Notes: generated by a model from the sequence alone, not told the origin. Counted from the stretch's first letter, positions 7,301 to 37,006 are shown. The stretch: DNA of 40,794 bases from an uncultured Candidatus Saccharibacteria bacterium (GCA_964478465.1 CAYZIG010000001.1:1-40794), one strand, 5' to 3'. Translations and numbers: made by a program.

Positions 7301-7327
7301 AATAAAAAAAGAGGCTTTTCAGCCTCT
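7301..7327 (-). terminator. Intrinsic terminator of the late (structural) operon
   Basis: On the minus strand the sequence reads AGAGGCT-GAAA-AGCCTCT followed by TTTTTTATT. The stem overlaps the TAG stop of the last tail gene. Confidence 0.75.
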
Positions 7328-14992: not shown

Positions 14993-15967
14993 CTAGTATT
15001 TTTTTCTTAAACTTATATTATCTATAGTACCGGTCCAAGTCGTACTTGATAAAATCATAGTTATACCATCTGCGAACTCGTCCGCTGTGAAATAAATTAA
15101 ATGTGATGCTAAACCTAATTTATTTAAATTCAATTTGTAACTTGTTGCAGTATTTGCGTAAATACTTAACCATTCGGGAACACCACTACCCATTGTTGCG
15201 GTTGTATTTGTTTCAAAATATAAAGCATATACCTCCCCAGTTGTAATAGTTTCTAAATATGTCGGGCTTAGATATATTTGACTTCCTAAACCTTCACCAA
15301 TAGGGTCTACCTGTGATATTTTTTCAGAAACAAGTGTAAATCCACTTATACTCCAGTTTGGAGTCCCAGATAAATTTCTATCAACTAAGTTTGTGATCAT
15401 TTCATCGCCAAATAATCCAAATTTTATTTTATCGCCGTTATTGTCATATTCTGCATTTATTTCTAATATAACACTCGCATTTTCTCCGTTAGTTCCCTTT
15501 TTTTCAAACTTTTTATCTATACAACATCTTAGAATAACAATGTCGTAAGATGTGTTATTTGCAGGAAGTTCAGAAGGATGAAGTCTTAAAATAAATTCAT
15601 TTAAAATATTTCCTACGACATTTCTAGCTGTTGAAATATCCCCTATTCCTGTTTCGTCATTTTCTACTGTTATACCTTCAAAATTTTTTATACCTGTTAC
15701 CCATTCATCAAGTTTTGCTATGGTAAAATCACTTAATTCTAGTTTTAATTTAGTTTCATTTATATCATGCAAAAATTTTATTGGTTCATTTCCACTTTCA
15801 AGGATTGTAACGCCTTTTAATTTTTCCGACCAATTAAATTCTGGTACTGATTTCTGAGAACCTAACAATGTCCACGCCTCATGTGTAAGAGGCACAACAC
15901 TATTATTATAAGGTGCAATATAAGGTTTAAATGTTCCTACATATTTACTTTTCATTATCCACCCCAC
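14993..15967 (-). CDS. Tail-tube paralog 3 with ~140-aa C-terminal extension
   Basis: Shares PYIAPY, LGSQKSVPEFNWSEK, LSDFTIAKLDEWVTGIKNFEG, ILRLHPSE and DKKFEKKGTNGE with the two upstream ORFs. It lies immediately upstream of the chaperones. Confidence 0.55.
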   Translation of the reverse strand: MGWIMKSKYVGTFKPYIAPYNNSVVPLTHEAWTLLGSQKSVPEFNWSEKLKGVTILESGNEPIKFLHDINETKLKLELSDFTIAKLDEWVTGIKNFEGITVENDETGIGDISTARNVVGNILNEFILRLHPSELPANNTSYDIVILRCCIDKKFEKKGTNGENASVILEINAEYDNNGDKIKFGLFGDEMITNLVDRNLSGTPNWSISGFTLVSEKISQVDPIGEGLGSQIYLSPTYLETITTGEVYALYFETNTTATMGSGVPEWLSIYANTATSYKLNLNKLGLASHLIYFTADEFADGITMILSSTTWTGTIDNISLRKKY

Positions 15968-16545
15968 CCAATAATTAATTTTTGGTCTAAACTGTCAGAC
16001 ATTCCTAAAACTTCAAATTCTAAAACCGCTTGTTCTCCTATAATGCCTTTTTTATCAAATTTTTTATTTATTACTGCGTGAGTAATTATAATATCTTGGT
16101 CGTATAATGCCCCACGTTCGACAGGGTGCAATCTTATTATACACTCCGCTATATTTATCCCGATTTTATTTGTAATCGTTCCTATGGTATTTTCATCAAC
16201 ATTATAGCCCTGTAAGTTGCATATTTCAGCCAGTTCATCGAATGTAGGAGCATTTTGAAACTGACCCATCGCGTCAAAGCTTACAGCGAGCCTAAATCCT
16301 TGTAATTTTGTTAAATCTAAGTCTACAAGAAATAATTTTGCCATGAGAGGATGTTCCGAACATACAGCCCCATCAATTCCATCTTCTATCGTTTTAACTT
16401 CTGCGTTTTTTTCTGAATAATTAAATTCAACGCCTGTTTTCTGATTTCCTAAAGCTACCCATAGGTCATGGTCTGTAGGTATAAATCCATCGTCGTATAA
16501 AGCTATGTAAAGTTGAAAAATACTTGGATATAATGGTGTTCCCAT
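15955..16545 (-). CDS. Tail-tube paralog 2
   Basis: LGNQKTGVEFNYSEK, IIRLHPVE and NKKFDKKGIIGEQA align with paralogs 1 and 3. Confidence 0.55.
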   Translation of the reverse strand: MGTPLYPSIFQLYIALYDDGFIPTDHDLWVALGNQKTGVEFNYSEKNAEVKTIEDGIDGAVCSEHPLMAKLFLVDLDLTKLQGFRLAVSFDAMGQFQNAPTFDELAEICNLQGYNVDENTIGTITNKIGINIAECIIRLHPVERGALYDQDIIITHAVINKKFDKKGIIGEQAVLEFEVLGMSDSLDQKLIIGWGG

Positions 16546-16557
16546 TTGTTACCTCCC

Positions 16558-17100
16558 TTAAGCGGTAACCGCTCCAAATACGACTTTTCTCGGAGTTGCT
16601 GAATCATTCCACATTGCCATACAATCCCAAACAACAGCGGCTTGGTCTCCGTATGTTCCTTTCTTTTCAAAAGACTTATTCGCTACTATTCTACATAAGA
16701 TTATATCGTTTGAATAGTCTGTTCCCATTTCTGCCGGGTGAAGTCTCAATATGTACTCGCTTGCAATCTGTCCAACTTTATTTGTAACTGTCAAAACACT
16801 TGCAGCGTATGCAGCTCCATCAAAATTTGATATTCCTGCCGACCATTCATCCAACTTTGCTACTGTTATATCCGATAATGTTAATTTGCAAGTTGCGGAT
16901 TGACTTTCCATTATTGCTTTCACTGCTTCATTACCACTTTCCACCGTTTTTACACCTGCATACTTTTCAGAATAGTTAAACTCTGCAACCGCTTTTTGTG
17001 AACCTAAAGCCGTCCATCCGCTTAGATTTGCACATGTAGGTATCACTCCATCAGTTGTGTAAGGTGCAATGTACGGTATAAAATTACCTAACATTAACAT
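16558..17100 (-). CDS. Tail-tube paralog 1 (major tail protein candidate)
   Basis: PYIAPY, LGSQKAVAEFNYSEK, LSDITVAKLDEWSAGISNFDG, ILRLHPAE and NKSFEKKGTYGDQA. It is the first of three tandem homologs. Confidence 0.55.
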   Translation of the reverse strand: MLMLGNFIPYIAPYTTDGVIPTCANLSGWTALGSQKAVAEFNYSEKYAGVKTVESGNEAVKAIMESQSATCKLTLSDITVAKLDEWSAGISNFDGAAYAASVLTVTNKVGQIASEYILRLHPAEMGTDYSNDIILCRIVANKSFEKKGTYGDQAAVVWDCMAMWNDSATPRKVVFGAVTA

Positions 17101-19057: not shown

Positions 19058-20125
19058 TTAATACCCTCCTCTAAAATTATATCCTTCTTCAAGGTCTACA
19101 ATTATTATTTTATTATCAAACAAGTTGATTATTGCTGTGTAGTCGGATGCCGTAACTGGGTCTGCTACTGTCCATGTTAATGAACCTGTATCAGTCATAT
19201 ATCCCGCTAATAGTTCTGCTGATGTGAAATCTCTATACGCAACCACCCCTCCAACTGTTCTGTATGCTCTAAGTCCTGTCGCTCCTGATGGTAATACCCC
19301 CGCAACTTTGATTGTTCTACTTACCGCAACCCCTGCAACTGTTGTTGGTGTTGCGAATAATCCTGTTGTATCTGATAATATCGTCACTGATGAACTTGCT
19401 CCTGTTGTATCTGATGCAATTTTTATCTTTGCTCCGTCTGAACTTGTAGGAGTATATCCTGCCCCATCCAAAGCTGTTACCAATGCCGCATGATTTGCTA
19501 ATGCCCCTGCTCCTGAATAATCAAGATTGAAAGTAGCAGAATGTGTCACTCCGTCAACTGTGAATATAACTGTTTTTGGAGTTACTGAACAATCCCCGAG
19601 TACTGCATTAACTGCCGCAATATTTGCAACCTGCAACCCTTGAACATATCCGGCCGCAACCGCTAAAGTTGTCGCTGAAGTTGAACCTGATGTTGTTGTT
19701 TTTCCGCCTGTATCATTTGTTCCTACTAAAACATAATCGTGTTGAGTAGTCGCCGCAAGCGTTCCACCTGCCTGTACTGTTAAGGTTGGAGCGGATGGCG
19801 TTGCAATTTCGTCTGTAGATGCAATATAGTTTATTCCGATTATTCCGGTACTCTTAACCTCACCCTCGTATATTGCAGATACTTTAACATCTGCCGTAGC
19901 ATCCGCTGTTACTGTGTCAACAATCGCTCTTGCCACCCCTGTTCCATTTGCTCCTCCTGACACATACTTTTTCCATTTTCCTACTGTTGTATCATACGCT
20001 ATAACCTGTCCTCTTAATATCGTTCCTTCGCCTGCCGCAATCACAACCTGTATGACTTCTTTCTCTCCTGCGACGAGTGCATCGCCTTGATTATACTCTG
20101 TTATTGTAACCAAATTTGTTGCCAT
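19058..20125 (-). CDS. Head decoration protein candidate with long Ala/Gly/Thr-rich extension
   Basis: The N-terminus ITEYNQGDALVAGEKEVIQVVIAAGEGTILRGQVIAYD resembles DUF2190 / lambda-D-like decoration proteins. The gene lies directly upstream of the capsid gene. Confidence 0.45.
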   Translation of the reverse strand: MATNLVTITEYNQGDALVAGEKEVIQVVIAAGEGTILRGQVIAYDTTVGKWKKYVSGGANGTGVARAIVDTVTADATADVKVSAIYEGEVKSTGIIGINYIASTDEIATPSAPTLTVQAGGTLAATTQHDYVLVGTNDTGGKTTTSGSTSATTLAVAAGYVQGLQVANIAAVNAVLGDCSVTPKTVIFTVDGVTHSATFNLDYSGAGALANHAALVTALDGAGYTPTSSDGAKIKIASDTTGASSSVTILSDTTGLFATPTTVAGVAVSRTIKVAGVLPSGATGLRAYRTVGGVVAYRDFTSAELLAGYMTDTGSLTWTVADPVTASDYTAIINLFDNKIIIVDLEEGYNFRGGY

Positions 20126-20128
20126 GTG

Positions 20129-21085
20129 TTATTTTACCCCCTGTCTTTTTTTTATAGAATCCATAGTGTTTTTTATAATTTCCTCTGTTTTTTGGATTTC
20201 TGTTTTTTCTTTATTATCTTTTTTACCTTCGAACTCTTCAGTAAGATATTTAAAGTCTTTCATCTTCTCAATCTTTGAAACAATTCTTTCAAATCTTGTT
20301 TGTTTTACTCCTGCTTCAAATTCTTGTATTTCCGTTTCTTCAACTGCTTTTGTAAGAGCATACTCTAAAATCTCAGGTAGTTCACCGACCAATTTTGTCT
20401 TCTGCTCTTTCATAACTGCATCAACTTTTGATTTCTTTGCATCCGCTTCATACTGTTGTATAACTTTATCCTTTGCTGCTAAGTCGTCAATAACTTTCTG
20501 CTGTTCTGGTGTAATTTTTTCTTCGAACTCTCCATAAACTACATTTCTCATCTGTTTCTTTTGATCCGCTGTTACGCTTTGTGCTATTGCTTGCATTAAC
20601 TCAAGTTTATTTTCAAGCGTTAATCCTAGCATAGCTTGTTTTATTTCTTCAATTGTCACTATGTTCCCTCCCTCTTTTATTATTTCATATTCCAGTATTG
20701 TATTATATGCGTTCTTTTCTTCAAACTCGGTCCCTACACATGCAGAGGCAACACCAAGTGGCAAAACACATATATTTATCAAACTATTATTTAACCCATC
20801 TATTTCTGCCGATATTCCTTTAAAAACTCCATCCGATTCATACATTAAACCCTTTTCATTCAATGAAAGCTCTGCAAACACTTCACCGTTTTTTATTTCA
20901 AAGTTTTCCCATTTCCCGATATGGATAGGTTCTTTATTTTCTTTGTCCCAGTGTGAAGTATGAATATATTGTGCATCCGCCTCAGTAACATTTCCAAAGA
21001 TGGTATTTACTTGTGAATCTGTCATATCTTTTCTTGAATCGTTTTTAGACATTTTCTTTGAAAAAACTTTTAATTTTTTACCCAT
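20129..21085 (-). CDS. Head maturation protease / scaffold (Mu gpI-like)
   Basis: It is the first gene behind its own promoter. A globular N-terminal part is followed by a long K/E coiled-coil C-terminus typical of scaffolds. It lies just upstream of the decoration and capsid genes. Confidence 0.5.
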   Translation of the reverse strand: MGKKLKVFSKKMSKNDSRKDMTDSQVNTIFGNVTEADAQYIHTSHWDKENKEPIHIGKWENFEIKNGEVFAELSLNEKGLMYESDGVFKGISAEIDGLNNSLINICVLPLGVASACVGTEFEEKNAYNTILEYEIIKEGGNIVTIEEIKQAMLGLTLENKLELMQAIAQSVTADQKKQMRNVVYGEFEEKITPEQQKVIDDLAAKDKVIQQYEADAKKSKVDAVMKEQKTKLVGELPEILEYALTKAVEETEIQEFEAGVKQTRFERIVSKIEKMKDFKYLTEEFEGKKDNKEKTEIQKTEEIIKNTMDSIKKRQGVK

Positions 21086-21122
21086 TAATCCCCCCTCCTA
21101 AAATTTAAGTATCAATACTTTT

Positions 21123-21151
21123 ATTATACTATATTTTGAATATAAAAACAA
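21123..21151 (-). promoter_or_regulatory. Candidate promoter for the capsid/tail operon
   Basis: On the minus strand: TTGTTT (21151-21146), a 17-nt spacer, then TATAAT (21128-21123). The terS promoter has the same architecture. Confidence 0.5.
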
Positions 21152-21200
21152 TAATATTTAAAATATTTAGTATATAAAATAGTTTGATAATAAAAATATT

Positions 21201-21683
21201 TTATTTAGGATTATATTCTACATCTTTTATTATAACTTTTTCATTATAAAAACCCTCGTGTCTTGCCATCGCTTTACACAATTTTAAGTAATCAACCTCA
21301 AATTTTGGTACAAATTTACGCCCTAAACCTGAGTATTCCTCGATAGCTTTAATATAATCCTCTACATTATTTTCAATTGATGGAGCGTATTTGTTTACTA
21401 TTTCTTCTATTGTTTTGTCTTTATAATGTTTTGAGTTACAAAGTAATTTTTTCATGCAGTTGAAGCCTTCTTCTTCGGTTGCAAAGACTGCGAAACGATT
21501 ATCTTTACCCGCTCTTCCGATTGCTCCAAAAGTTTTTGTGAAATTTCCGTATTCGATATTACCCGGATTATTATTCCTTTTTGCACAAATTCCCTTAACC
21601 GTTATAGCCTTCTTTTCTTCATCATCAAAAAAAATAGTTGTCATACTGCCTTTTTCTCCAAAATGTTCTGCTCTATTCCACAT
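21201..21683 (-). CDS. Candidate endolysin / muralytic protein (NNPGNI-motif family)
   Basis: Carries RNNNPGNIEYG...FAVFATEEEGF...TIEEIVNKYAP. I only vaguely recall this motif family from phage lytic/structural annotations. It lies directly downstream of an XhlA-like membrane protein. Confidence 0.4.
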   Translation of the reverse strand: MWNRAEHFGEKGSMTTIFFDDEEKKAITVKGICAKRNNNPGNIEYGNFTKTFGAIGRAGKDNRFAVFATEEEGFNCMKKLLCNSKHYKDKTIEEIVNKYAPSIENNVEDYIKAIEEYSGLGRKFVPKFEVDYLKLCKAMARHEGFYNEKVIIKDVEYNPK

Positions 21684-21687
21684 TTTA

Positions 21688-21987
21688 TCACTTCCCTTCT
21701 AAAACAGTTTTGATTGCTAATGTTGTTAATGCTCCTACAATCAACAATATTACTGTTTTTGTTATTTCTTTATTGAGCTTTGCAGGTTCTTTGTTCTTTT
21801 CATCAATCTCTTTTTCAATCTTTTTCAATATCTCGAACATGTCATTCATTTTTTGAGAACTTAAGAGAAATTGTTCTCTTAAGTCCCCAAATTTTTCTTT
21901 GAAGTTCTTGAACTCTGTTTCGAGTTCTGAAATTTTATTTTTCAGAAATTCAATTGTTTCTATTTTTTTACATTCGTGTTCTTCCAT
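21688..21987 (-). CDS. XhlA-like lysis-associated membrane protein
   Basis: 99 aa with an N-terminal coiled coil and a single C-terminal TM helix (TVILLIVGALTTLAIKTVL). This is the architecture of PBSX XhlA-type proteins. Confidence 0.5.
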   Translation of the reverse strand: MEEHECKKIETIEFLKNKISELETEFKNFKEKFGDLREQFLLSSQKMNDMFEILKKIEKEIDEKNKEPAKLNKEITKTVILLIVGALTTLAIKTVLEGK

Positions 21988-22607
21988 TATCTATATGTTA
22001 TCTCTACATGATATACGTGGTTATCTATTGCGTTTGTTCCGTCATAATTTCCAACATAGATTTTATTTTCACCTTGATACATAAAACAAGTTAATATTTT
22101 AGAGTTATTTTCATTAAGCCCTATTCCCGCAGAACTTCGAACAGGATTAATTGGAGGTGTTATAGTTAAACTACCCGTTGCGGTTCCTTTATCTGTTATG
22201 GTTATAACTATAGAAAGGTTAATAATATTTCCTACTTTTGTATAATATCCTGTCGCAGAATAAGAAGTTATAGTCCCTGTTCCTGCTGTAACTATAGGAT
22301 TATATGATGTTTCCTCATAATCGTCAAATACATTTATTCCTACATCATCAGATTGACTTGCAGGAAAAGATATTCCCGAACACGTTAAAATACTTGTTGT
22401 TCCTAGTTTTGGAACTTTTAAAGCTTCTCCACTTGTTGTTACTCCGCTTGTCGTTGTTCCAAAACCTAACGCCTCAAAATTTCCTTGTAGGTACGGTCTT
22501 GCCCCTGATACCGTATCTGTTCCGCTGTCAAATCCTGCCGTTCCTACCACTGCAAAACTCATTGTTGATATTAACACTAATATCAATCCTAACATTAATT
22601 TTTTCAT
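21987..22607 (-). CDS. Secreted protein of unknown function
   Basis: The N-terminal signal-peptide-like MKKLMLGLILVLISTMSFAVVG is followed by Gly/Thr/Ser-rich beta-type sequence. Confidence 0.5.
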   Translation of the reverse strand: MKKLMLGLILVLISTMSFAVVGTAGFDSGTDTVSGARPYLQGNFEALGFGTTTSGVTTSGEALKVPKLGTTSILTCSGISFPASQSDDVGINVFDDYEETSYNPIVTAGTGTITSYSATGYYTKVGNIINLSIVITITDKGTATGSLTITPPINPVRSSAGIGLNENNSKILTCFMYQGENKIYVGNYDGTNAIDNHVYHVEITYR

Positions 22608-22620
22608 TTCTGCACTCTCC

Positions 22621-23109
22621 CTATTTTAATTTTATTGAAATAATTGTGCTCAAGTTTGTTGGTGTGAACACAAAGTTTAAATCTATATCACTGCAAATAT
22701 TTTTATTGTAAAACAGTAAAGGCATTACCAAAATATTGTTATTAATTAGAATATTTTTTGTATAATATTCATTAGTTCCAAAGTATATATAATTATCATA
22801 TCCCGAAAACGCCCCTATTCCATAACTTAAATTATCACTTATTTTATTTGTATAAACTATTCCTAAACTGTCTTTTGAATTACTATTATTCATTGTCATT
22901 ATAGTTATATTTTCAAACTTTAATCCTAAAATATAATTGTTGTTATTAACTAATGTATTATTTCCATAGTGTCTTGTGTCGATACCTATAAGCAATTCCG
23001 TTGCATTGCTTTCAATTGCAAAGACGGTGCTTAATATAACTATTATAATCCATGTCATTAACCTCATAATACACCGCCTTTTATTTTTATATGTCGTCCA
23101 TTGATCCAA
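22621..23109 (-). CDS. Small signal-peptide protein with beta-barrel-like alternating pattern (probable start ATG 23067)
   Basis: MRLMTWIIIVILSTVFAIESNA is followed by amphipathic strands (YILGLKFENITIMTM, SLGIVYTNKIS, LSYGIGAFSGY, DIDLNFVFTP). The ATG at 23067 follows AAAGGCGGTG and removes the overlap with the previous ORF. Confidence 0.35.
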   Translation of the reverse strand: MDQWTTYKNKRRCIMRLMTWIIIVILSTVFAIESNATELLIGIDTRHYGNNTLVNNNNYILGLKFENITIMTMNNSNSKDSLGIVYTNKISDNLSYGIGAFSGYDNYIYFGTNEYYTKNILINNNILVMPLLFYNKNICSDIDLNFVFTPTNLSTIISIKLK

Positions 23110-23425
23110 TATATTTTTCTTGTGCTTTCAAAAGTTTATATACTTCATCCATAAAAACTGATTCCACAAAAACTTTTTTATTTTCATTAGTTTTTATTTC
23201 AAAAGTTTTATCATTTAAATAAAATATATTTTCAAAACATTCAGTATTAAAGTCTTTTCTTTCAAGTTCGATTGTCTGAATGTCTAACGGATATTCGCCA
23301 TTTAATCTACTTTCTTTGTTTGCATAACTTTCTACTGTCATTCTAAGATTATTTTCATTTTCTGAAACATAAAAGAATGAAATTTTGTGATAGTTCGTAT
23401 TTTCTAGTTGTTTTATTATTGCCAT
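23087..23425 (-). CDS. Hypothetical protein downstream of the fibre genes
   Basis: 112-aa ORF with no recognisable motif. Its position is compatible with a fibre chaperone. Confidence 0.4.
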   Translation of the reverse strand: MAIIKQLENTNYHKISFFYVSENENNLRMTVESYANKESRLNGEYPLDIQTIELERKDFNTECFENIFYLNDKTFEIKTNENKKVFVESVFMDEVYKLLKAQEKYIGSMDDI

Positions 23426-23434
23426 TTTTACTCC

Positions 23435-24814
23435 TTATTTATAATAAAAAATATATATTCTATTTGCGGTATATCCGCTTCTATCTGCAACAGTTACGGC
23501 TGTTAAATTTGTACTGTCAATTTGCCATGTAACTTGGTTTGCGGCGGTTGTACTATCAAGCCCGAACGGTACAAATTTAGTCCCGTCGTAAGCTGAACCG
23601 TTCATTCTTACAATTTTTGTTCTGTCAAAATTACTTATACCGTGTGCAACATTTTTTGTCGTGTTGTTTGGTATTGCCCCAAAGTTTATAACTTTACAAA
23701 ACACTCTATTACCATCAATATACTCATTCGTTGCAATTTCTGAACCTATTATGTAATTTACTCCATTAACTTCTGAATCCCAGTCTATAGCCCCTGTTGA
23801 AGTTACTCCGATACAAGTAAATTTACCTTTCATTGAAGGGGTAACTGTTTGAACCAACTCCCCTCCTGAACTATTAACAGTTATAACCGCATTAGTAGTA
23901 TTATTTTTTATTTCCCACATTTGACCTGTTGAAAGTGTTGAAGTTACTGGCAAAAGTATAGTTTGAGTTGTTGTTCCTGTAAAAAATTGGTATCTGTTTG
24001 ATATACTTGTAAGTGTAGTTATAGTCGCTGAACATGTTGTAGTCGTATATCCGTTTGTATTTCTTGAAAATATAGTTCCTCCAACTCTCAAGTCTTTTGC
24101 TATTCCTGCTCCTCCACTTGCAATTATAGAACCATCCGAAATTGTCAAACTCTGTGTTGTGGATGTAGCGGTCAAACTTGGTGAACTTATACCGCCATTC
24201 GCTTTTATTCTTAATTGTTCCGTTATCGTTAAACCATTTACATTTTTAAAAACTAAGTCACTTTTATAGTCGTTAGCTCCTGCACTTATTACGTTTGTAC
24301 CTATTGAGTTAGCAAGTAAATGTGTTCCTGCGTTATCTCTAACATTAAATTCTATTGTATGTTCATCTCCACCGCCCGAAGCATAAAAATTATCAAGTGA
24401 TAAAGCTGTATAAGTTCCAGAAGAGGCAGTATTTATTATAGTTTGTTTACCGCCTAAATATAAATCTTTCTTTATGCCTACTCCACCATCAACTATTAAT
24501 GCCCCTGTAGCAATGCTTATAGACTGTGTAGTAGATAATGTCGATATATCCCCTAAACTTGTTATAACTCCTGTAACTCCTACGCCTGCATTGAGTATTA
24601 ATGCCGAACCCGTCAGACTTAACGCCCCCAAGTATCCTTGCCCTATATAACTTGTATTAGTCGCTATCTGTTGAAGCACATCAGCGGCGTTTACCGCTGA
24701 ACCTGTCGAACTAGTCCATTGATAAAACGCCCCTTTTGTCGTTGTAGTGTTTACCGTTCCCGAAAAACTAAGTATTGAAAGTAACGTAAAAATTAATAAT
24801 AGTGTTTTTTTCAT
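23435..24814 (-). CDS. Fibre-like protein, short paralog, with signal-peptide-like N-terminus
   Basis: MKKTLLLIFTLLSILSFSG, then SAVNAADVLQQIATNTSYI and repeated GALIVDGGVGIKKDLYLGG / ASGGAGIAKDLRVGG motifs. These are shared with the 875-aa protein. Confidence 0.55.
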   Translation of the reverse strand: MKKTLLLIFTLLSILSFSGTVNTTTTKGAFYQWTSSTGSAVNAADVLQQIATNTSYIGQGYLGALSLTGSALILNAGVGVTGVITSLGDISTLSTTQSISIATGALIVDGGVGIKKDLYLGGKQTIINTASSGTYTALSLDNFYASGGGDEHTIEFNVRDNAGTHLLANSIGTNVISAGANDYKSDLVFKNVNGLTITEQLRIKANGGISSPSLTATSTTQSLTISDGSIIASGGAGIAKDLRVGGTIFSRNTNGYTTTTCSATITTLTSISNRYQFFTGTTTQTILLPVTSTLSTGQMWEIKNNTTNAVITVNSSGGELVQTVTPSMKGKFTCIGVTSTGAIDWDSEVNGVNYIIGSEIATNEYIDGNRVFCKVINFGAIPNNTTKNVAHGISNFDRTKIVRMNGSAYDGTKFVPFGLDSTTAANQVTWQIDSTNLTAVTVADRSGYTANRIYIFYYK

Positions 24815-24823
24815 TTGTCCCCC

Positions 24824-27451
24824 TTATATTCGATTAACACTTAAATTAAAATGTCTGATAGTGACATCTGTCGTATCTGTTTGATTAATTATACCTAGCC
24901 ATAATCTATCACCTACAGTTAAGGATAATATACCCCCAAAAACCAAACTATCATATTGATTTGCTGTTGTAAAATATTTAGATGCAACTATATTTGTCTG
25001 TTCTGTAGTATTTTTAAAAACTCCTACTTTGAATTGTGTTGTATTAGTATCGCAATAAAGCGTCAAAGTTCCATTAACTTTATAAGTTCCTGCTCCACTT
25101 GAACCTACCTCAAGATACGCCCCTCGATAATAACTTCCTGTTCTTGTCGCAACAAAAGTCTTTGATATATAAAATGCTGTTGGACTTACTACTGTAACTG
25201 TATAAGTTCCATCATAATTTGTCGTAGAATGAATTGTTATTGCATCCCCAGTTGTCAAATTATGCCCTGCCGTGACAGTAAACAATGATGTACCTGCAAC
25301 CACAGCCCCATAGGTCGAAACGCTCGCTATAGAGCCTGTTACGCCTTGTTTGAATGTAAAATCTATACAACTACCCGTAGTTATTCCTGAACCCGTTACC
25401 GCCTGATACTCATTAACTACTTTTATATCAATTATATTTGCATTTTCAAAAGCATACATTTCACCATAATGTGTATTATATAATCCTACTTCTTTTCTTC
25501 CTTCTGACACGTTAGTGAAATACAGTGAATCCCCAGAAAATTCTATTGCCCCTACCTCTGAATCAGTGTTAAGTGTACCATCTATAAGTTTGAGTGGTGC
25601 GGTATCGGCGGTTGAAGTTCCCGCAGGCGGTCTTAATTTTGATATTGTACTAACTGCAGTTAAAGTCCCTGCCGTATTAATATTCTTTGCTATACCCACT
25701 CCACCGCTCACTATAAGCGAACCGTTTGTATGTGCTGTAGATTGTAATGAACTTAGAACCGTTATTCCTCCGCTAGTAGTATCCGCACTATTACCTCTTA
25801 ATATTAATCTTTCTGTTGTTGCAGTGCCTCCGATTATTGTCTGTCCTCCTGCAACTCCTGAGTTATCTATTTTTTCACTTGAAAGCTCTTCGATTGCAGA
25901 TTGTAAGTTTGTGCTTGATATAGTCCCGAACGTAGTAGACGAAACATTTGTGGCAGTTATTGAAAAGTTATTATTTGTTACTGAAAAATTACTTCTTCTT
26001 AAATCTACTGTTTCTCTTAACGCAGTATATTTAACATTGCTTGAATAAGTTGATTTATATTGAAAAATAAGTTTATAAAGTGGTCTTATTTCTTCATCTT
26101 TCAACGTTGGATATACATTTTGTAAATCAATCCAATCCGAAGCCTGTGCATCTAGTAAAGTTGAAAAAGTTTCTATTGCGGAACAGGTTTTTAATGCTTC
26201 TCCTGCTCTTTGGTCCTGTAAAGAATATATATAATACACAAAATAATTATTGTCAGGTACATCAACCGCCATTCCAGTAGTTAAAATATATTGTGGAATA
26301 TTTGTTCCACTGTCAAATAAAAATGGAAATCTAGTAGCGGGATACATTTCTAAAATACCATTTACATCATTACCGCGTATCTTCATAACAGCCGAATTTG
26401 TGACGGTTATACCTGATGCGGTTATGTATCCTAAATCTTGTGTAAATAATGCACCTGACGTACTATTGGTCACAGTATAACTTAAATTATCGTCCATATT
26501 TTTACCAGTTTTTAATGATATTGCTGTATTCAATCCGCTTGTGTCAGGTGTTCCATTAGTAACATTAGAAATTAAGTCAAACCCACTCAACCATATTGTA
26601 CCGTATTTGTGCTTCCAAGCATGGTCTGATGAACTCATTGTATTCATGTGCGTTTCTAAACTTTCAACAACTACCATTGCCGAACCTGTTAAGTTAGCAT
26701 TTACATATATACGATAAATAGGAGCTAATAAAGAAAAATCACTCCATGCCGTCTGAGTAGTTACAGGTGTTCCAGTATTATCTATATAAAAATACCATAC
26801 TCCGCTTGATGAAGTATACGCGGGAAAATTACATGGACTTGTTATAGTATGCCGTTCTACTACTCCACTACCATCAGTGAATATATCAAACGAACTTCCC
26901 GTAACTGCTGTAACTGTCAAAACTTTAGTATCGTAATCAATCGAAACGTTTACAGGACACTTTTCACACAATCCCACAAAAGCGGTTTGTTTTAAATTCA
27001 ATAAATTTTGTAAATCTTCGCCATTTAAATTTATTGTATCACTATGAATAGATGTTGAAGTTATTGCTGAGGCTGTAAGATTTACTGTTTGACTGTTGAT
27101 TGATGTGAAGCTCGTTACGACTTGTTCATTAATTATTTGCGTTACCGTCAAGGTGTCGGCTGTTAAGTTACCTTGAACTTCAAAATCACCCGCTATTATC
27201 CCCGAACCTGTAACGCCTACATCACCATTAACGATTAAAGCCCCGTTCGTTGCACTTATGTTACCTACCGAACTTATGTACTGTGTATTATTCTGTATTG
27301 CTGTCAAAACATCAGCAGAATTTACTAAATTACCGCTAGAACCAATCCATGTTGACATTGAATCTCTGCTTAATACCTGATTAGTTGTTCCGCCTGCAAA
27401 TATTACTATTACACTTAGTATTAATATAATGCTTAATGCTAGTTTTTTCAT
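24824..27451 (-). CDS. Fibre-like protein, long paralog, with signal-peptide-like N-terminus and C1q/TNF-like C-terminal head
   Basis: MKKLALSIILILSVIVIFAGG, NLVNSADVLTAIQNNTQYI, GALIVNGDVGVTG and SGGVGIAKNINTAGT. The C-terminus KVGVFKNTTEQ...LSLTVGDRLWLGIINQTD...IRHFNLSV resembles a C1q-type jelly roll. Confidence 0.6.
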   Translation of the reverse strand: MKKLALSIILILSVIVIFAGGTTNQVLSRDSMSTWIGSSGNLVNSADVLTAIQNNTQYISSVGNISATNGALIVNGDVGVTGSGIIAGDFEVQGNLTADTLTVTQIINEQVVTSFTSINSQTVNLTASAITSTSIHSDTINLNGEDLQNLLNLKQTAFVGLCEKCPVNVSIDYDTKVLTVTAVTGSSFDIFTDGSGVVERHTITSPCNFPAYTSSSGVWYFYIDNTGTPVTTQTAWSDFSLLAPIYRIYVNANLTGSAMVVVESLETHMNTMSSSDHAWKHKYGTIWLSGFDLISNVTNGTPDTSGLNTAISLKTGKNMDDNLSYTVTNSTSGALFTQDLGYITASGITVTNSAVMKIRGNDVNGILEMYPATRFPFLFDSGTNIPQYILTTGMAVDVPDNNYFVYYIYSLQDQRAGEALKTCSAIETFSTLLDAQASDWIDLQNVYPTLKDEEIRPLYKLIFQYKSTYSSNVKYTALRETVDLRRSNFSVTNNNFSITATNVSSTTFGTISSTNLQSAIEELSSEKIDNSGVAGGQTIIGGTATTERLILRGNSADTTSGGITVLSSLQSTAHTNGSLIVSGGVGIAKNINTAGTLTAVSTISKLRPPAGTSTADTAPLKLIDGTLNTDSEVGAIEFSGDSLYFTNVSEGRKEVGLYNTHYGEMYAFENANIIDIKVVNEYQAVTGSGITTGSCIDFTFKQGVTGSIASVSTYGAVVAGTSLFTVTAGHNLTTGDAITIHSTTNYDGTYTVTVVSPTAFYISKTFVATRTGSYYRGAYLEVGSSGAGTYKVNGTLTLYCDTNTTQFKVGVFKNTTEQTNIVASKYFTTANQYDSLVFGGILSLTVGDRLWLGIINQTDTTDVTIRHFNLSVNRI

Positions 27452-28317
27452 TATTCCTCCTTTTTAATATTTAACATAAAATCTATTGTTTCTTTTCTTA
27501 TGTCGTCAAGCTCGATATTATTTTTTAAATTTACGTTTATTTCTTCGAATATATCCCCATCCTGCAATACTTTTTTCAGAATGTACGGCGGACTTGTAGA
27601 ATTACTCATCATGAACAATGAAATTAAATCTTTTAGCCAGTCTGAAATACCGCCTTTTTTAACTGAGTATTTATATTTATAATTCCCTGTACCTACTGAA
27701 ATTATTCTTATTTTTTCGTCAGGGAAAAGTTTTTTTGCTTCGATATATGCAGACAAACATAAATCGTTCTGGTCTACTCCTCCATCTACATATCTATTGA
27801 AAAAAATTTCTTTTGGTTCAAAGAAAGTTGGAGCTGAACAACTTGCCTCTACCGCATCCGATAAAGCGGCGTAATTTGTAATCTCTGATTTATAACTTTT
27901 CCAGTATTGTGGAATATCTTCTGTGATATTATACGCTGTTATCATCAACTTTTTTTCGATACAACTTATAGGGATATTCCCGAGTATTTTTCTAAGACTT
28001 TCTCTTAATTGTTCACTTTGATATTTCGGGTTTATCAACCCATTTAGGCTTCTGATATTATACCAAAAATCTTTCTTGAATATTTTCCATATCTCTTCAA
28101 GATAAACTTTCAATATATCCTCTGTCTTCATACTAATTGAATATGCTCCCGCTATAATTGCCCCTGTAGAAACGCCACAAAGCAAGTCAGGAACGATTTT
28201 TTCTTTCTTCTCTAACTCTTTCATCAAGACAAGGCTTATAATCCCTCTAACGCCACCACCCGAAAAACACAGAACTGTTTTCAAATACTCCACCGCCTTT
28301 ATCAAATGATTTTTCAA
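27451..28317 (-). CDS. Patatin-like phospholipase (probable start TTG 28284)
   Basis: FSGGGVRG (oxyanion loop), GVSTGAI (GxSxG nucleophile) and YVDGGV (catalytic Asp) appear in canonical order. No ATG precedes the Gly loop, and the TTG at 28284 follows AAGGCGGTGGAGTAT. The stop overlaps the ATG of the fibre gene. Confidence 0.85.
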   Translation of the reverse strand: MKNHLIKAVEYLKTVLCFSGGGVRGIISLVLMKELEKKEKIVPDLLCGVSTGAIIAGAYSISMKTEDILKVYLEEIWKIFKKDFWYNIRSLNGLINPKYQSEQLRESLRKILGNIPISCIEKKLMITAYNITEDIPQYWKSYKSEITNYAALSDAVEASCSAPTFFEPKEIFFNRYVDGGVDQNDLCLSAYIEAKKLFPDEKIRIISVGTGNYKYKYSVKKGGISDWLKDLISLFMMSNSTSPPYILKKVLQDGDIFEEINVNLKNNIELDDIRKETIDFMLNIKKEE

Positions 28318-28522
28318 ATGAAAGAGTTATGAAAACCCCTTTCGTAGTATTGACATAATCTTTTTTAATAAGTTTATAACCTTCTTTTTCATATTTTTTC
28401 TCATATTCTGAAATATCCATTAATGTTTGAAAGTTATTCCGTTCTCTGAATAGTTCAACTTTTTTTATATCAGAAAATGAAAAAGTAAAAATTAATAGAT
28501 ATATTAATAATATTAATTTCAT
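28247..28522 (-). CDS. Small signal-peptide protein
   Basis: MKLILLIYLLIFTFSFSD leader. The 3' end overlaps the patatin frame by 38-71 nt. Confidence 0.45.
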   Translation of the reverse strand: MKLILLIYLLIFTFSFSDIKKVELFRERNNFQTLMDISEYEKKYEKEGYKLIKKDYVNTTKGVFITLSFEKSFDKGGGVFENSSVFFGWWR

Positions 28523-28758
28523 TATACTAATCCTACTACTATATGATGCTTTGAGCTATTCGGGACTATTATTTTGAAAGCCGAAAAAGTTGTTTGAGTT
28601 GTTATATCTCCAGATAGTCCTGCTTCAATGACTTTATCTATTCCGTTTACTGAAATAGTTATATCTTCGTTGCCTGTGTTTGTCACTTCAATATAATTTC
28701 CTGTATCTTCGTATAACGCCGTGACTAGCTTATTATTATATACTTTCTTCGTTAGCAT
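28522..28758 (-). CDS. Hypothetical small beta-rich protein
   Basis: 78-aa ORF tightly coupled to its neighbours (a 1-nt gap on one side, a 1-nt overlap on the other). Confidence 0.4.
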   Translation of the reverse strand: MLTKKVYNNKLVTALYEDTGNYIEVTNTGNEDITISVNGIDKVIEAGLSGDITTQTTFSAFKIIVPNSSKHHIVVGLV

Positions 28759-28759
28759 T

Positions 28760-29320
28760 CTATTCTCCTTTTACAATATATTTTTGTACCATCTTCGTGT
28801 ATTTCTTGACCTCATAAGATGAAAATCCTAAGAAACGCCTCTCAGGTATTGAGACTTTATAAGATTTTACTTTATGTTCGGTTTGAAAATTAGCTTTGTT
28901 TTGTTTTACAATTTTCATAGTTCCGTTTTTTGAAATCTTCCAATTAATTTTAGTTTTTCTAGCCGGATGTAATATTTCAGCTCCAAAATTATGGACAGCC
29001 GCAATCTTTACATCTTCCGAATCATACACCCCGACCGCAACCGAGTTTTTGTAACTTTTAGCGGTTATTTTCTGTAAAATGTGTGTCGTTGTATCGTTAA
29101 GAGGCTTAGAACTTCCACGCCTTCGCCTCTTAATTGTACTTTCCGCTAATCTTTCCCATTGTCCTCCGTCTGGTGCTTCTGTATTTCTAAATCTAAGTTG
29201 TGTTTGACTGAGTGCTTTTGGTTTTATTTCTTCAAGAATAGGTTTTAAGGTTCTACTCCTTTTTATCACTTCTTTCATGTGAAGTGTCAATCCTGCTGTG
29301 TCAAGTGATATTGTAATCAT
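28760..29320 (-). CDS. Mu G-like virion morphogenesis protein
   Basis: PDGGQWERLAESTIKRRRRGSSKPLNDTTTHILQKI...VAVGVYDSEDVKIAAVHNFGA parallels the Mu gpG pattern (W..LAEST.K.R ... AA.H.FG). Confidence 0.75.
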   Translation of the reverse strand: MITISLDTAGLTLHMKEVIKRSRTLKPILEEIKPKALSQTQLRFRNTEAPDGGQWERLAESTIKRRRRGSSKPLNDTTTHILQKITAKSYKNSVAVGVYDSEDVKIAAVHNFGAEILHPARKTKINWKISKNGTMKIVKQNKANFQTEHKVKSYKVSIPERRFLGFSSYEVKKYTKMVQKYIVKGE

Positions 29321-31491
29321 TAACTCACCAACTTTCTAAGTTCTTTTACCTCTTCATCTTTCTTATTAACCAGTTTTTCCATGCTCTTACTCATTCCAAT
29401 AGCGGGATTATAACCAAAACCACTGTCTTTCAACACTTTCAAGTCCTCTTCTGGTATTCTGTCAGAGTTAGCAACCTTCAACCCTTCCTCTTCTAAATCT
29501 TCTTTGTCGAGTGCAATTACTATTGACCTTTCATTATAATGATTTGGCGGATATATCTTCGACCATATCGGGTCATCTTGTTTATAGACTTTACCGTTTA
29601 AGAAAAAGCATATTTCTGTAGTACGTCCATCTAAAATTGCACTATAAAGCCAGTAAGGCTCATTCTTGCTCTTCATCTGTTCGTTATATCTACCTGCCGA
29701 ATACGCAGATACAAGATTAGTTCTGAATACTGTTTCAAGATATGCTTTGCTTGCAATTTTTTCAGGTTCCATAACATTTAACCATTCTTTAAATGTCGAA
29801 CCGTTATCAATTGCATCTTTCAAGTTTTTATATATCCTCTTTGTCATCTCTAAGTCAGTTGCTTTTTTAACCCAAAAATATTGTGACCTTATTTCATCCT
29901 CTACATCTTCAATATCTGCAAACAAAACAGGGTCTTTATCAACGAAAAACTTTATAGCTTCCTCAAACTTCATTTTGAAAGGGTCTATTTTCTCCGCAAA
30001 AGCCTCTATAACTATTTTGGATACACTGTCCATACCTTTTAACCTTGCAATCGTAAAAGCTTCGTCAAAGGTCGTTTCTGTCCATTCCATGCCAATTTTT
30101 TCTATATCTTCTATAGACTTAATTTTAGAAATTTGCTTGATATAGTTTTTCGATACTTCGTCCGCTATGTTCGGGAGTACCTCAAGCATACTGTCAGTAA
30201 ATTCTTTCTCCTGTTTTCTTGCTTTTTCAAGTTTTAATTGTATTCTACTCTTTTTTTTTTCTGCAAATTCAATTCTTTCAAAGTTTTGAATAGCGGGTTG
30301 TGATACTTCATAGCTTAATTGTTCGATAGGTATTCCAGTATCCTGCGATATATACTCCAAACCTACTTTTATTCCAGCTGTTTTCAATTTAACATATTTG
30401 TCAACTATAGCAGATTTTGTCTGTTCTTCTTTTTGTCTGTCTACTTCGCTATCTAACGACAAGTAATACTTTTTACCATCGAACCCTTTTAACTCACCTT
30501 GCCAATTAATAACATTCTGAAAACTGTCTCTAATATATTTTGCGTACCCTTCAATCATGTTTGTTGATACTTCGTTAAGAGTAACCGCTTGAGCATTTGA
30601 ACCGTTCGCCTGTCCTACTGCGTTTGATACATTAGAACCTAGCAAATATACGTTGATCGCATCCACTGCCTGATTAATAATTGAAGCGTGTACTTCTGTT
30701 TTGAATTGGTCCAGCGTAATAAATTGAACTTGGCTGTTAAATTCGTTTACAGGCATCCCTACGACGTTTCCGCCTCTCATCATATCTTTTACATCAGATG
30801 CCAAAGCCGCCGCCTCTGTTCCTGTCAAAGTTGGGTCATAAGCAAAGTAGGTTATTATGTCACCGTAATTTTGTACAATGTATCCTTCTTTGTTTAATGC
30901 AAGTTCTTTTAATTTCCAGCATTTGTAAAGCGGTTCTAATATACTTCGTCCCATCTGCATATCTTCCGACCAATCGTTTATTGTTACTAAGAACTTATAA
31001 GGTGTTTCTGAAAAATATAAATATTCGCCATTATCGGCTATAAAGTACCAATCTTTTTTATTTCCATCATAGTTGAACCAATAATTAGGCTTTGATTTTA
31101 TTTTTTCAACCCATAGTTCATTATCGTATAATATTTCTTGTGCTTGATACCCTGTGAATTTTGACCATGCCATTTTCTCGATAATACTCGACATGTTCAA
31201 TAAAGCATATTTCCCCTCTAACTCTTTCGCCCCTTCTTTATCTTCATCTCTAACTGCTTTAATATGCCATTCTCTACCTGATAACTGTAGAAAAATTTTA
31301 TTGAATGCAGATAAAATAGTATCATCCCTTAACATTTTTTCTAGCTCGGTTGGTGTCATGTAAGAGAATGAAAAGTTTGTCATTATTCTGTTAGCTGTTC
31401 TGATTGCTAACTCTTGTGTTAATAATTGTCTTTGCGGTTGTATTGGCTTCGGCGGTGGTATCGCTTTCTTGAAAAAGTCTAAAATTGCCAT
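29320..31491 (-). CDS. Portal protein fused to Mu F-like / SPP1 gp7-like minor head domain
   Basis: 723 aa, directly after the large terminase. The C-terminal GRTTEICFFLNGKVYKQDDPIWSKIYPPNHYNERSIV matches the Mu F family signature (C..lnG ... PP.H.nCR). A coiled linker with an A10 tract lies at codon ~411. Confidence 0.7.
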   Translation of the reverse strand: MAILDFFKKAIPPPKPIQPQRQLLTQELAIRTANRIMTNFSFSYMTPTELEKMLRDDTILSAFNKIFLQLSGREWHIKAVRDEDKEGAKELEGKYALLNMSSIIEKMAWSKFTGYQAQEILYDNELWVEKIKSKPNYWFNYDGNKKDWYFIADNGEYLYFSETPYKFLVTINDWSEDMQMGRSILEPLYKCWKLKELALNKEGYIVQNYGDIITYFAYDPTLTGTEAAALASDVKDMMRGGNVVGMPVNEFNSQVQFITLDQFKTEVHASIINQAVDAINVYLLGSNVSNAVGQANGSNAQAVTLNEVSTNMIEGYAKYIRDSFQNVINWQGELKGFDGKKYYLSLDSEVDRQKEEQTKSAIVDKYVKLKTAGIKVGLEYISQDTGIPIEQLSYEVSQPAIQNFERIEFAEKKKSRIQLKLEKARKQEKEFTDSMLEVLPNIADEVSKNYIKQISKIKSIEDIEKIGMEWTETTFDEAFTIARLKGMDSVSKIVIEAFAEKIDPFKMKFEEAIKFFVDKDPVLFADIEDVEDEIRSQYFWVKKATDLEMTKRIYKNLKDAIDNGSTFKEWLNVMEPEKIASKAYLETVFRTNLVSAYSAGRYNEQMKSKNEPYWLYSAILDGRTTEICFFLNGKVYKQDDPIWSKIYPPNHYNERSIVIALDKEDLEEEGLKVANSDRIPEEDLKVLKDSGFGYNPAIGMSKSMEKLVNKKDEEVKELRKLVS

Positions 31492-36373: not shown

Positions 36374-36784
36374 CTATCTTCTTTGTTCTATTTCTTCAGT
36401 TGTTTCTTTTTTTCTTCCATTTCTTATATAATGCGGTAAATCGTCGTTTTCTAGCTCTCCTAACTCTTCATGGTGTATTATTGCCATTAAATTCCACACG
36501 GCCGCCGCCAAATTATCCTCTGTTTCATCACCTTGAACATATTTGTTAATGTGTCGTTTTGCACTGTCAAGGTATCTTGAGAACTTCATACCTTTTTCCC
36601 AGTTACGGTCAGCATATTTTTTTGCTCCCAATTCAAACCATTTTGCCAATCTTTCTTCTGCAAAAGGGCTTATTAAATCAAATCTGCCTTTCCCTGTTGT
36701 AACCTCTCTAATTGCTTTTCCTTCGCCTTGTGAAATTATTTCATTTGTACTATTTATATTATTTTCAAATCCCAAAATTATCAC
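36374..36784 (-). CDS. DUF5664 / dATP-dGTP diphosphohydrolase-like all-alpha NTP pyrophosphatase
   Basis: GKGRFDLISPFAEERLAKWFELGAKKYADRNWEKGMKFSRYLDSAKRHINKYVQGDETEDNLAAAVWNLMAII follows the family pattern (K.rydL.p ... GakKY..rNW.kG ... RH ... D ... a.Nl). The family is recalled, not searched. Confidence 0.65.
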   Translation of the reverse strand: MIILGFENNINSTNEIISQGEGKAIREVTTGKGRFDLISPFAEERLAKWFELGAKKYADRNWEKGMKFSRYLDSAKRHINKYVQGDETEDNLAAAVWNLMAIIHHEELGELENDDLPHYIRNGRKKETTEEIEQRR

Positions 36785-36805: not shown

Positions 36806-37006
36806 TTAATATGACTTTTTGTTTTTTTCATATTCTTTCACAAATTCAAGTTCTCCAACCACTAATCTACTATAACAGCACTTTTTAAATTTTTTACCGC
36901 TTCCGCATTTACATTTATCATTTCTTTTTATCTTAATACCTTTTATAGGTTCTCCATTGTTACTTATGCTCCAAACTTTAATATTCATTATTTCACTACT
37001 CCTCAT
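36806..37006 (-). CDS. SEC-C motif mini-protein (probable start ATG 36988)
   Basis: CKCGSGKKFKKCC is the SEC-C metal-binding motif. The second ATG is preceded by GAGGAG at a suitable distance. Confidence 0.6.
   Translation of the reverse strand: MRSSEIMNIKVWSISNNGEPIKGIKIKRNDKCKCGSGKKFKKCCYSRLVVGELEFVKEYEKNKKSY

Follow-up and report, generated by a model that had tools for sequence, protein, structure and literature searches.

In phage Mu and in Mu-type prophages of Fusobacterium and Clostridia (here L002-L032), genes with portal_Mu and Mu F domains are followed by G (Phage_tail_S) and then by scaffold-position, decoration and capsid genes, and in Mu itself the gap between G and I is 197 bp long and contains the Mu gyrase site. 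Genes for host recognition and lysis form a late cassette of the canonical order 'tail fibre - holin - endolysin', as in Fusobacterium necrophorum phage phiFN37 (OR492271) and in locus L007. Phage lambda carries the morons lom and bor in its late region, and T5 encodes Llp, a receptor-blocking lipoprotein. In Wolbachia phage WO, a patatin and a small holin-like protein have been proposed to form the lytic cassette (PMC9203015), a role that is itself a hypothesis. Here we examine a 40.8 kb contig (40,794 nucleotides; GCA_964478465.1, CAYZIG010000001.1), referred to below as the window, which is deposited under an uncultured Candidatus Saccharibacteria bacterium and encodes a phage whose head module is interrupted, at positions 21201-28758, by a block of ten minus-strand open reading frames (ORFs). 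As an initial annotation of the sequence had noticed, these ORFs are flanked by the Mu G-like gene on one side and the scaffold-position gene on the other, and encode secreted-type, fibre-type and lysis-type proteins. We favour, at slightly better than an even chance, the interpretation that the block is the phage's displaced host-recognition and lysis cassette, accompanied by a few envelope-acting accessory genes and located at the junction between G and the scaffold gene.

A four-sequence portal alignment recovered 25 viral loci, which were examined together with loci found earlier, and homologues of G and of the scaffold, decoration and capsid genes were located in each. The scaffold gene follows G within 10-390 bp in 25 loci that have a related portal-MuF fusion and belong to about seven sequence types; the premise that the head module is normally contiguous thus holds for these relatives. 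The window has the same components in the same order, that is portal_Mu and Mu F domains (here fused), a G-like Phage_tail_S gene (28760-29320, minus strand; 186 aa, Neck1/tail-completion; PF05069, 2.1e-15; phrog_26, 3.4e-23), and scaffold-position, lambda-D-like decoration and capsid genes, but its G-like and scaffold-position genes are 7.7 kb and ten genes apart, compared with 10-390 bp in the relatives and 197 bp in Mu. Kilobases of DNA were otherwise found at this junction only in phiFN37 and the near-identical prophage L028 (8.2 kb or more).

Phage phiFN37 is the nearest deposited phage to that of the window, with 30% identity between the portal-MuF proteins and 33% between the scaffold proteins, and its insert of 8.2 kb lies at exactly the same junction. 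The two inserts are unrelated, however: that of phiFN37 contains genes for ToxN, HicB, Rha, a repressor and hypothetical proteins but no fibre or lysis genes, and the leaderless tail fibre and the endolysin of phiFN37 are encoded after the tape-measure protein (TMP), in the canonical place. In some other relatives the gap is occupied by an 85-aa SpoVG gene (PF04026, 2.5e-24) or by a small transmembrane ORF, and in others it is empty; the SpoVG homologue was observed in L002, L003, L004 and L031 (in L004, for example, at 12561-12818), and the small transmembrane ORF in relatives of the L009 type. Because G and the scaffold gene are adjacent in 25 loci, while the window and phiFN37 carry unrelated kilobases between them, the comparison of gene orders indicates that this junction is a recurrent cargo slot and not a one-off, and that the window block is an insertion relative to the layout of the lineage. 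In the synteny comparison with relatives that the initial annotation had proposed as a check, relatives lack the block at the junction and the slot of phiFN37 holds unrelated cargo. Annotation pipelines rely on a fixed order of structural genes, and a slot that takes anything from an 85-aa SpoVG gene up to what would be a whole fibre-and-lysis cassette departs from that order. Further relatives of the window phage, again at about 30% identity, include a prophage of Fusobacterium perfoetens and, because this prophage and phiFN37 are the nearest relatives, a Fusobacterium-like diderm is the likely host. Phages of Fusobacterium are of interest in oral and colorectal disease, and their host-range and lysis genes would here have to be sought in the head region.

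The genes of the block are separated by spacers of 0-20 nt or overlap, a Shine-Dalgarno sequence precedes every start, and all ten ORFs are intact. The first of them, which encodes 78 aa (28522-28758, minus strand), is translationally coupled to G, the stop of which lies 1 nt from its start. The block's only sizeable intergenic gap is an AT-rich stretch of 115 bp (21086-21200) before the 318-aa scaffold-position gene, and it holds the sequence TTGTTT-N17-TATAAT (21151-21123) together with a strong Shine-Dalgarno sequence for the scaffold gene. A separate promoter had been proposed at 21123-21151; the -10 hexamer is perfect and the -35 hexamer matches at three of six positions, but the site falls under the threshold of the promoter scan, and promoter-like matches in the window (85) are not enriched over shuffled sequences (70 +/- 9). 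We regard this promoter as a possibility, and the proposal was not borne out. No terminator was predicted in the 115-bp gap, and within the block the scan gave weak intragenic matches only. Because of the translational coupling to G, the tight packing, the common strand and the lack of terminators, the ten block genes would be expressed with the late operon.

Profiles of GC content and trinucleotide distance are continuous with the neighbouring head genes and reveal no boundary; a check of composition across the edges of the block had been suggested initially. A search for att-like or recombination repeats flanking the block returned repeats at chance level and the paralogy of the fibre genes only. 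As the composition is continuous and flanking repeats are absent, recent foreign acquisition of the block is not indicated. Of the two origins put forward in the initial annotation, relocation and acquisition, the former agrees with an insertion at the slot, and the latter, if recent, is not indicated by the composition.

The unusual position of the block might also be explained by an assembly chimera, or by a remnant in decay whose expression has ceased. The contig is a singleton, in that each window protein tested forms its own cluster in protein collections and is found on the NCBI contig and a few short Logan contigs, and the 3' junction, between the 160-aa gene and the scaffold gene, was not recovered on any independent contig. 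The 5' junction, which comprises the portal, G, 78-aa and 91-aa genes and the start of the patatin gene, is by contrast identical (100%) on Logan contigs from two independent runs, and two further contigs are 100% identical to the window across 21555-23560. Since the 5' junction is found at 100% identity in contigs from two other sequencing runs, it is not an assembly artefact. With this junction and an inner segment reproduced, with ten intact ORFs that have Shine-Dalgarno sites and coupled starts, with a composition that passes without a break into the head genes, and with a related phage of about 80% DNA identity in which the order of the 875-, 459- and 112-aa genes is kept, we consider a chimera or remnant very improbable.

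Three proteins of the block belong by homology to the tail-fibre or receptor-binding family. The largest (24824-27451, minus strand; 875 aa) has a Sec-type leader (residues 1 to ~19), an N-terminal domain, a central domain (~155-487) and a jelly-roll-like C-terminal tip. Its central domain (about 330-400 aa) has more than 30 homologues of very different lengths, at 40-51% identity, some of which carry Collar, Mtd_N, Sipho_Gp37 or Laminin_G_3 domains, and one homologue (P0008) is encoded in the canonical position after the TMP. In an AlphaFold (AF2) model the central domain (residues 155-487) is confident, with pLDDT of 85-97, and large parts of the protein are of low confidence. The model has no fold match in the PDB better than 3e-3, and its matches in BFVD are to large proteins of uncultured Caudovirales (down to 1.7e-23), some of which are annotated as Peptidase_S74 or tail fibre. 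We also observed that, between residues ~266 and 456 (numbering of the 875-aa protein), the central domain keeps the invariant residues H268, N270, H277, H281, D320, E454 and R456 and the near-invariant E266 in 31 family members, with the motif E.H.N..S..DHAWKH; this conservation may mark a site for metal binding or catalysis in a fold without PDB match.

The second protein (23435-24814, minus strand; 459 aa) likewise has a Sec-type leader and is paralogous to the 875-aa protein over residues 1-82, the two being 43% identical (BLASTP over 84 aa, 8e-12) and having a later GGVGI-type motif in common; a search with an alignment of the 82-aa N-terminal part returned nothing, not even the query proteins, and was hence uninformative. 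This protein has 4446 HMMER hits to modular and often repetitive fibre proteins; for the fibre-type proteins of the block as a group, the Pfam domains that co-occur in homologues are Collar, Mtd_N, Sipho_Gp37 and K1-lyase_C. In its structural model two C-terminal domains are confident, large parts are of low confidence, and the best fold match in the PDB is a phage tailspike depolymerase (3.2e-5, with a low TM-score). A full-length homologue of 452 aa (P0039), which is 67% identical and keeps the leader, is encoded on a contig of 1.5 kb (L008) with about 80% DNA identity to the window, and there the order of an 875-like, the 452-aa and a 112-like gene is kept. The third protein (21987-22607, minus strand; 206 aa) carries a leader, and its residues ~61-206 resemble the C-terminal tips of phage tail fibres: tblastn matched tail fibre genes of cyanophages S-SBP1 (4e-6) and S-CBP3 (7e-5), and the PHROG matches are phrog_29288 (5.7e-6) and, weakly, phrog_1836 (tail fibre). 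PDB sequence searches with the 875-, 459-, 206- and 162-aa proteins gave nothing significant. Directly after the fibre pair is the gene of an acidic protein of 112 aa without a leader (23087-23425, minus strand), which has one weak PHROG match (3e-4) to a family of unknown function; by its position it is a candidate partner in fibre assembly.

The case for a displaced cassette is made by what the tail module lacks. The TMP is followed by two proteins of 504 and 327 aa without matches and then by the terminator, and no recognisable receptor-binding protein was found in this module; fibre and lysis genes do not occur where they usually would, behind the tail genes, and these end at a terminator-like hairpin with a T-run (7310-7327, minus strand; AGAGGCTGAAAAGCCTCT then TTTTTTATTG) directly 3' of the last of them. 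Because the tail module ends at a terminator without a recognisable receptor-binding protein, we read the block as the displaced cassette. The 875- and 459-aa proteins would possess a common N-terminal docking domain and different distal domains, and these two together with the tip-like 206-aa protein would be receptor-binding fibres, supplying a function that the tail module otherwise lacks, with the 112-aa protein as their assembly partner. The comparison with L007 is instructive, as its TMP is followed by four small tail proteins, an 882-aa homologue of the 875-aa protein, proteins of 323 and 95 aa and a Muramidase, that is by a fibre-family protein, small proteins and a lysin, as in the canonical late cassette. 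The cassette of the window differs in that it sits inside the head module and that its fibres carry signal peptides.

Five of the about 55 window proteins have a signal-peptide-like N-terminal hydrophobic leader and all five are encoded in the block, for which five such leaders had been noted initially: these are the 875-, 459- and 206-aa fibre-type proteins, the 91-aa protein and the 148-aa barrel candidate, the last two of which are described below. In a hydropathy scan, the means of 15-residue windows reach 2.25-3.27 in the five leaders and never exceed 1.71 in the rest of the genome. Each leader is predicted to be a Sec signal peptide, with a positively charged n-region, a hydrophobic h-region of 12-16 residues and small residues at -3 and -1, and the c-regions IFA/GG, SFS/GT, SFA/VV, SFS/DI and VFA/IE (slashes mark the predicted cut) fit sites of signal peptidase I (SPase I). 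None of the five exported-type proteins has a lipobox cysteine. Because a Shine-Dalgarno sequence precedes each leader ATG and P0039 keeps its leader, the leaders are not, on the sequence evidence, a start-codon artefact.

Leaders are present in four of the 31 members of the central-domain family, and leader-bearing proteins with fibre or tailspike domains cluster with other exported small proteins and with lysis-type membrane proteins. On contig L036 (2634-8550) we observed a leader-bearing fibre of 1317 aa followed by proteins of 140, 204 and 136 aa, all with leaders; the 140- and 136-aa proteins are paralogues with C-terminal coiled coils, and next comes a coiled-coil protein of 99 aa whose transmembrane segment is C-terminal, the same build as that of the protein encoded at 21688-21987 of the window. 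On L037 (2340-8039) an island of 5.7 kb lies between gp25/W and Baseplate_J in a baseplate cluster of myovirus type, and encodes a leader-bearing 669-aa protein of the fibre family and, after it, an LRR_5 protein that also has a leader, along with several small membrane proteins; judging from its gene content, L037 holds another structural module that, like that of the window, is interrupted by genes for exported fibre-type proteins. A leader-bearing tailspike-like protein with a K1-lyase_C domain was observed on another phage-like contig. Taking the window together with at least four unrelated contigs (L036, L037, L040 and P0012, the last with little context), we suggest only tentatively that Sec-exported proteins of tail-fibre families are a recurrent, undescribed feature of phages, a generalization about which we remain doubtful.

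Two readings of the leaders are possible. In the first, the proteins mature in the periplasm and join the particles at lysis; in the second, they are exported copies that mask or destroy the receptor. Under the displaced-cassette interpretation the fibre proteins would pass through the inner membrane and fold in the periplasm, and would encounter the tails only once the holin opens the membrane, and this is the least certain step of the proposed scheme. The second reading leads to a different account of the block, as an island of exported cargo proteins (a set of morons) that are not parts of the virion. Its leader-bearing proteins would be exported to the host envelope, during infection or in the lysogen, and there bind, mask or modify the phage's own receptor, with superinfection exclusion and protection of progeny from debris as the outcome, in the manner of T5 Llp; alternatively they would be adhesins, and receptor binding would then reside in the 504- and 327-aa tail proteins. 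Lom, Bor and Llp are comparable to the window proteins as small signal-peptide envelope proteins encoded among phage tail-fibre or lysis genes, and a function of the Llp type would fit exported proteins resembling receptor-binding ones; there is, however, no sequence relation, and the exported proteins of the window are built from tail-fibre domains and have no lipobox cysteine.

In favour of such an island are the presence here of all five Sec-type leaders, with canonical n-, h- and c-regions and small residues at -3 and -1, the use of the same slot for non-structural cargo in phiFN37 and for SpoVG in other relatives, and the neighbourhood of leader-bearing fibre-family members and other leader-bearing proteins in the unrelated L036 and L037. 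The phage also encodes a tyrosine recombinase in its early region and may, given this enzyme, be temperate. Yet the genes form part of the late operon and are coupled to G, and a search detected neither a promoter nor a terminator belonging to them; the N-terminal domain common to the two paralogues, with the 112-aa gene behind them, also has the look of a fibre set docking at one site. No other candidate for a fibre or receptor-binding protein was found in the genome, the leader-bearing proteins of L036 and L037 likewise look like the sole fibres, and there is no evident route across the outer membrane. We therefore regard the cargo island as unlikely, if by no means negligible, and retain the displaced cassette as the interpretation that we prefer.

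The last two genes of the block, together with the gene of the 148-aa protein, bear on lysis and on the envelope. The 160-aa protein (21201-21683, minus strand; no leader) is a candidate lysin of the muramidase/transglycosylase type and is homologous to lytic peptidoglycan hydrolase domains: it matches phrog_873 'endolysin' (3.5e-22) and phrog_7182 'tail injection transglycosylase' (1.4e-8), and in PDB sequence searches the N-terminus of Gp29 (9vvp, 2.2e-6) and an endolysin (7q47, 4.3e-4), with an RNNNPGNI motif in common. Because the same domain occurs in virion-associated lysins and in tape-measure proteins (phrog_2276, phrog_7182), the homology suggests, but does not by itself specify, a role in lysis from within. 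Upstream is the gene of a 99-aa protein (21688-21987, minus strand) in which a coiled coil is followed by a C-terminal transmembrane segment (residues 78-94), a candidate holin-like or XhlA-like lysis partner. In this architecture, with the coiled coil N-terminal and the transmembrane segment C-terminal, the protein agrees with XhlA of the PBSX-type XhlA/XhlB/XlyA lysis set, as the initial label 'XhlA-like' implied. As a statement of homology the label is not supported: the PHROG matches are weak (phrog_1193 'hemolysin', 5.9e-4; phrog_739 'Rz-like spanin', 3e-3), there is no match to Pfam XhlA at E up to 0.1, and the window has no second holin or spanins recognisable with Pfam or PHROG. In the scheme that we propose, lysis would proceed by means of the 160-aa muramidase-like enzyme and the 99-aa tail-anchored coiled-coil membrane protein.

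The leader-bearing 148-aa protein (22621-23067, minus strand) is a putative outer-membrane beta-barrel. Its ORF can be extended to a TTG at 23109, but the true start is probably M15, which is preceded by a Shine-Dalgarno sequence and was chosen by an independent gene call (148 aa). It matches phrog_3600 ('PagP') at 9.6e-11; an identity as PagP was rejected, as there is no Pfam or NCBIfam match at E up to 0.1 and no similarity by BLASTP to an approximate sequence of E. coli PagP. The protein may be an outer-membrane accessory of the lom kind.

At the other end of the block are the genes of a patatin-like phospholipase without a leader, similar to CapV and to the patatins of phage WO (27451-28317, minus strand), and of a 91-aa protein (28247-28522, minus strand), which lies upstream of the patatin gene and overlaps it. 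The 91-aa protein begins with a hydrophobic segment, either a leader or a transmembrane helix (MKLILLIYLLIFTFSFS/D), and its C-terminal part is highly charged. The patatin ORF opens with a TTG at 28317, and the start is more probably the TTG at 28284 (277 aa), which is preceded by a Shine-Dalgarno sequence and was called independently on contig L042; all candidates for the start are TTG or GTG. We note that the 91-aa and patatin ORFs overlap by 38-70 nt in different frames (28247-28317, minus strand). A frameshift fusion of the two, which would yield a secreted patatin, was considered and set aside, given the independent call of the Shine-Dalgarno-preceded TTG start; it is also disfavoured by the fact that patatins of the CapV type begin about 10 residues before the GGG motif.

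Membership of the patatin-like phospholipases is well founded in homology, with PF01734 matched at 2e-29 (103.6 bits, against a cut-off of 27.7) and with the motifs GGGVRG, GVSTG and DGG, corresponding to the GGxR oxyanion, GxSxG serine and DG[AG] aspartate motifs, all present in the translation. The best-scoring profile family is that of CapV, the cGAMP-activated effector of CBASS, with which the window patatin has the catalytic motifs in common: it matches the PADLOC phospholipase effector PDLC00758 at 1e-53, NCBIfam CBASS_lipase (NF041079) at 2.4e-44 and an 'anti-phage phospholipase' model at 3e-21. Taken with the presence of ToxN and HicB in the equivalent slot of phiFN37, these matches raise the possibility that the block is a defence or abortive-infection island centred on the patatin and carried as prophage cargo. 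The score against NF041079, however, is 151.9 bits and so below the curated equivalog cut-off of 200, and no CD-NTase cyclase is adjacent, on which grounds CBASS CapV membership was rejected. PADLOC detected no cyclase or other component and no defence system beyond the patatin in the block, and Pfam and PHROG scans of the rest of the window gave no cyclase or other sensor either. Nine of the ten block genes have no defence match, and among phages in the collection the patatin has homologues only in Wolbachia phage WO, whose patatins (28-32% identity over >90% of the length) have been proposed to act in lysis. A defence island is, we believe, improbable.

The likeness to the WO cassette extends to the partner of the patatin, in that both phages encode beside it a small protein that has a single transmembrane segment near its N-terminus and is charged in its C-terminal part. 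The partners are of the same build with zero sequence similarity, and the 91-aa protein was not accepted as a homologue of the holin-like protein of WO; the window phage furthermore adds a muramidase-like lysin. If the displaced-cassette interpretation is right, the leaderless patatin and the 91-aa membrane protein would attack membrane phospholipid after the inner membrane is breached, and the patatin would stand in for spanins, none of which were found, as proposed for the WO cassette. The pair would thereby offer a second context, in a culturable host, for the WO hypothesis of patatin-mediated lysis.

The remaining block gene, that of the 78-aa protein, is found together with G on two independent Logan contigs. 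Its product has no match in Pfam, PHROG, NCBIfam or PADLOC, and it was discarded as a counterpart of the relatives' SpoVG gene, to which it has no sequence similarity. The contents listed initially for the block are hence all present: a patatin, two paralogous fibres, a 112-aa ORF, a barrel candidate, the 206-aa leader-bearing protein, a coiled-coil protein and a lysin candidate. The further suggestion that these form one undescribed envelope-targeting module is not supported, as the block is a composite of known parts, in which fibres and a small barrel stand beside a patatin and a lysin that has a membrane partner. The arrangement is thus one of known parts relocated, while the Sec-type leaders on proteins of the fibre family are genuinely odd, with no described precedent found.

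Several points count against the interpretation of the block as a displaced host-recognition and lysis cassette. A cleavable Sec signal peptide removes a protein from the cytoplasm, where tailed phages assemble, and the literature that we searched contains no description of exported tail fibres of virions. The signal peptides were assigned solely on hydropathy and on the -3/-1 rule. The unclassified distal tail proteins of 504 and 327 aa could bind the receptor, the best matches of the patatin are defence effectors of the CBASS type and not lysis enzymes, and the 99-aa protein has no significant match to a holin or XhlA model. Lastly, these searches found no close relative with a long contig by which the rearrangement could be dated or its direction read: megablast of 17 kb against the phage collection gave no match, neither an exact look-up of the portal nor a search for its homologues recovered more than the window contig, and a metagenome scan with the 459-aa alignment recovered nothing; the genome and viral collections yielded relatives at about 30% identity only.

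Should the leaders function as their sequences suggest, some of the adsorption apparatus would leave the cytoplasm before assembly, or receptor-binding decoys would be exported. Either outcome, if true, would be a new element of phage-envelope biology, and periplasmic maturation would amount to a non-cytoplasmic assembly step for a tailed phage.

The phage genome has a GC content of about 30%, and its genes all lie on the minus strand. Read in the order of transcription, the window begins with early and DNA-metabolism genes (a DNA methylase, the tyrosine recombinase and MazG-like enzymes), followed by terS and terL, the portal(Mu)+MuF fusion (29320-31491, minus strand; PF06074, 1.1e-34; PF04233, 4.3e-20), the G-like gene, the block, and head genes for proteins of 318, 355 and 342 aa. 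Head-tail and tail genes come next, including those of three paralogous tube-like proteins, and then the genes of the TMP (phrog_27166, 2.7e-27) and of the 504- and 327-aa distal proteins, the latter two without a match in any library, PDB sequence search included. Downstream of the hairpin that ends the late operon are regulators, RecE/RecT, SSB and replication genes. No tRNA genes and no terminal repeats were found in the window.

The gene on the right flank of the block (20129-21085, minus strand) is placed in scaffold position by its location and by 33% identity, over 317 aa, of its 318-aa product to that of the phiFN37 gene just upstream of the capsid gene. The protein has zero Pfam or PHROG family matches and no detectable homology to Mu gpI, a comparison by hhalign of an 8-sequence profile with gpI giving a probability of 0.4%. 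The name 'protease/scaffold (I)' used in the initial annotation is consequently apt as regards position, its sole basis, and unsupported as regards identity with gpI. The adjacent decoration-position protein (19058-20125, minus strand; 355 aa) resembles lambda gpD over its first ~95 residues (PF02924, 2.4e-5) and is followed by the presumed capsid protein of 342 aa. We observed that the gpD-like part continues into a long extension rich in Ala, Thr and Gly, whereas the equivalents in relatives are of about 117 aa.

Some further features of the window were observed in regions outside the head module. Three consecutive genes at 14993-17100 (minus strand) encode paralogous proteins of 180, 196 and 324 aa, which have 36-44% identity over ~180 aa; one of them matches the PHROG 'protein with Ig domain', and the set looks like a triplicated major-tail or tube-like gene. 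Between the genes in tail-chaperone position and the tape-measure gene (13170-14297, minus strand) is the gene of a 375-aa protein of the Spherulin4 family (PF12138, 4.3e-34), an odd location for a putative glycan-active enzyme, which may hydrolyse polysaccharides as part of the virion or as an accessory protein. In the early region are genes for a protein with the N-terminal domain of dATP/dGTP diphosphohydrolase (36374-36784; PF18909, 1e-21), a MazG-like PRA-PH (39268-39636) and a DUF4406 protein (36996-37289), all on the minus strand; these are nucleotide-pool enzymes of the type found in phages with modified DNA, and no PurZ-like gene was seen. Among the replication genes there is a homing endonuclease of the GIY-YIG type (1056-1544, minus strand; phrog_7168, 3.8e-13).

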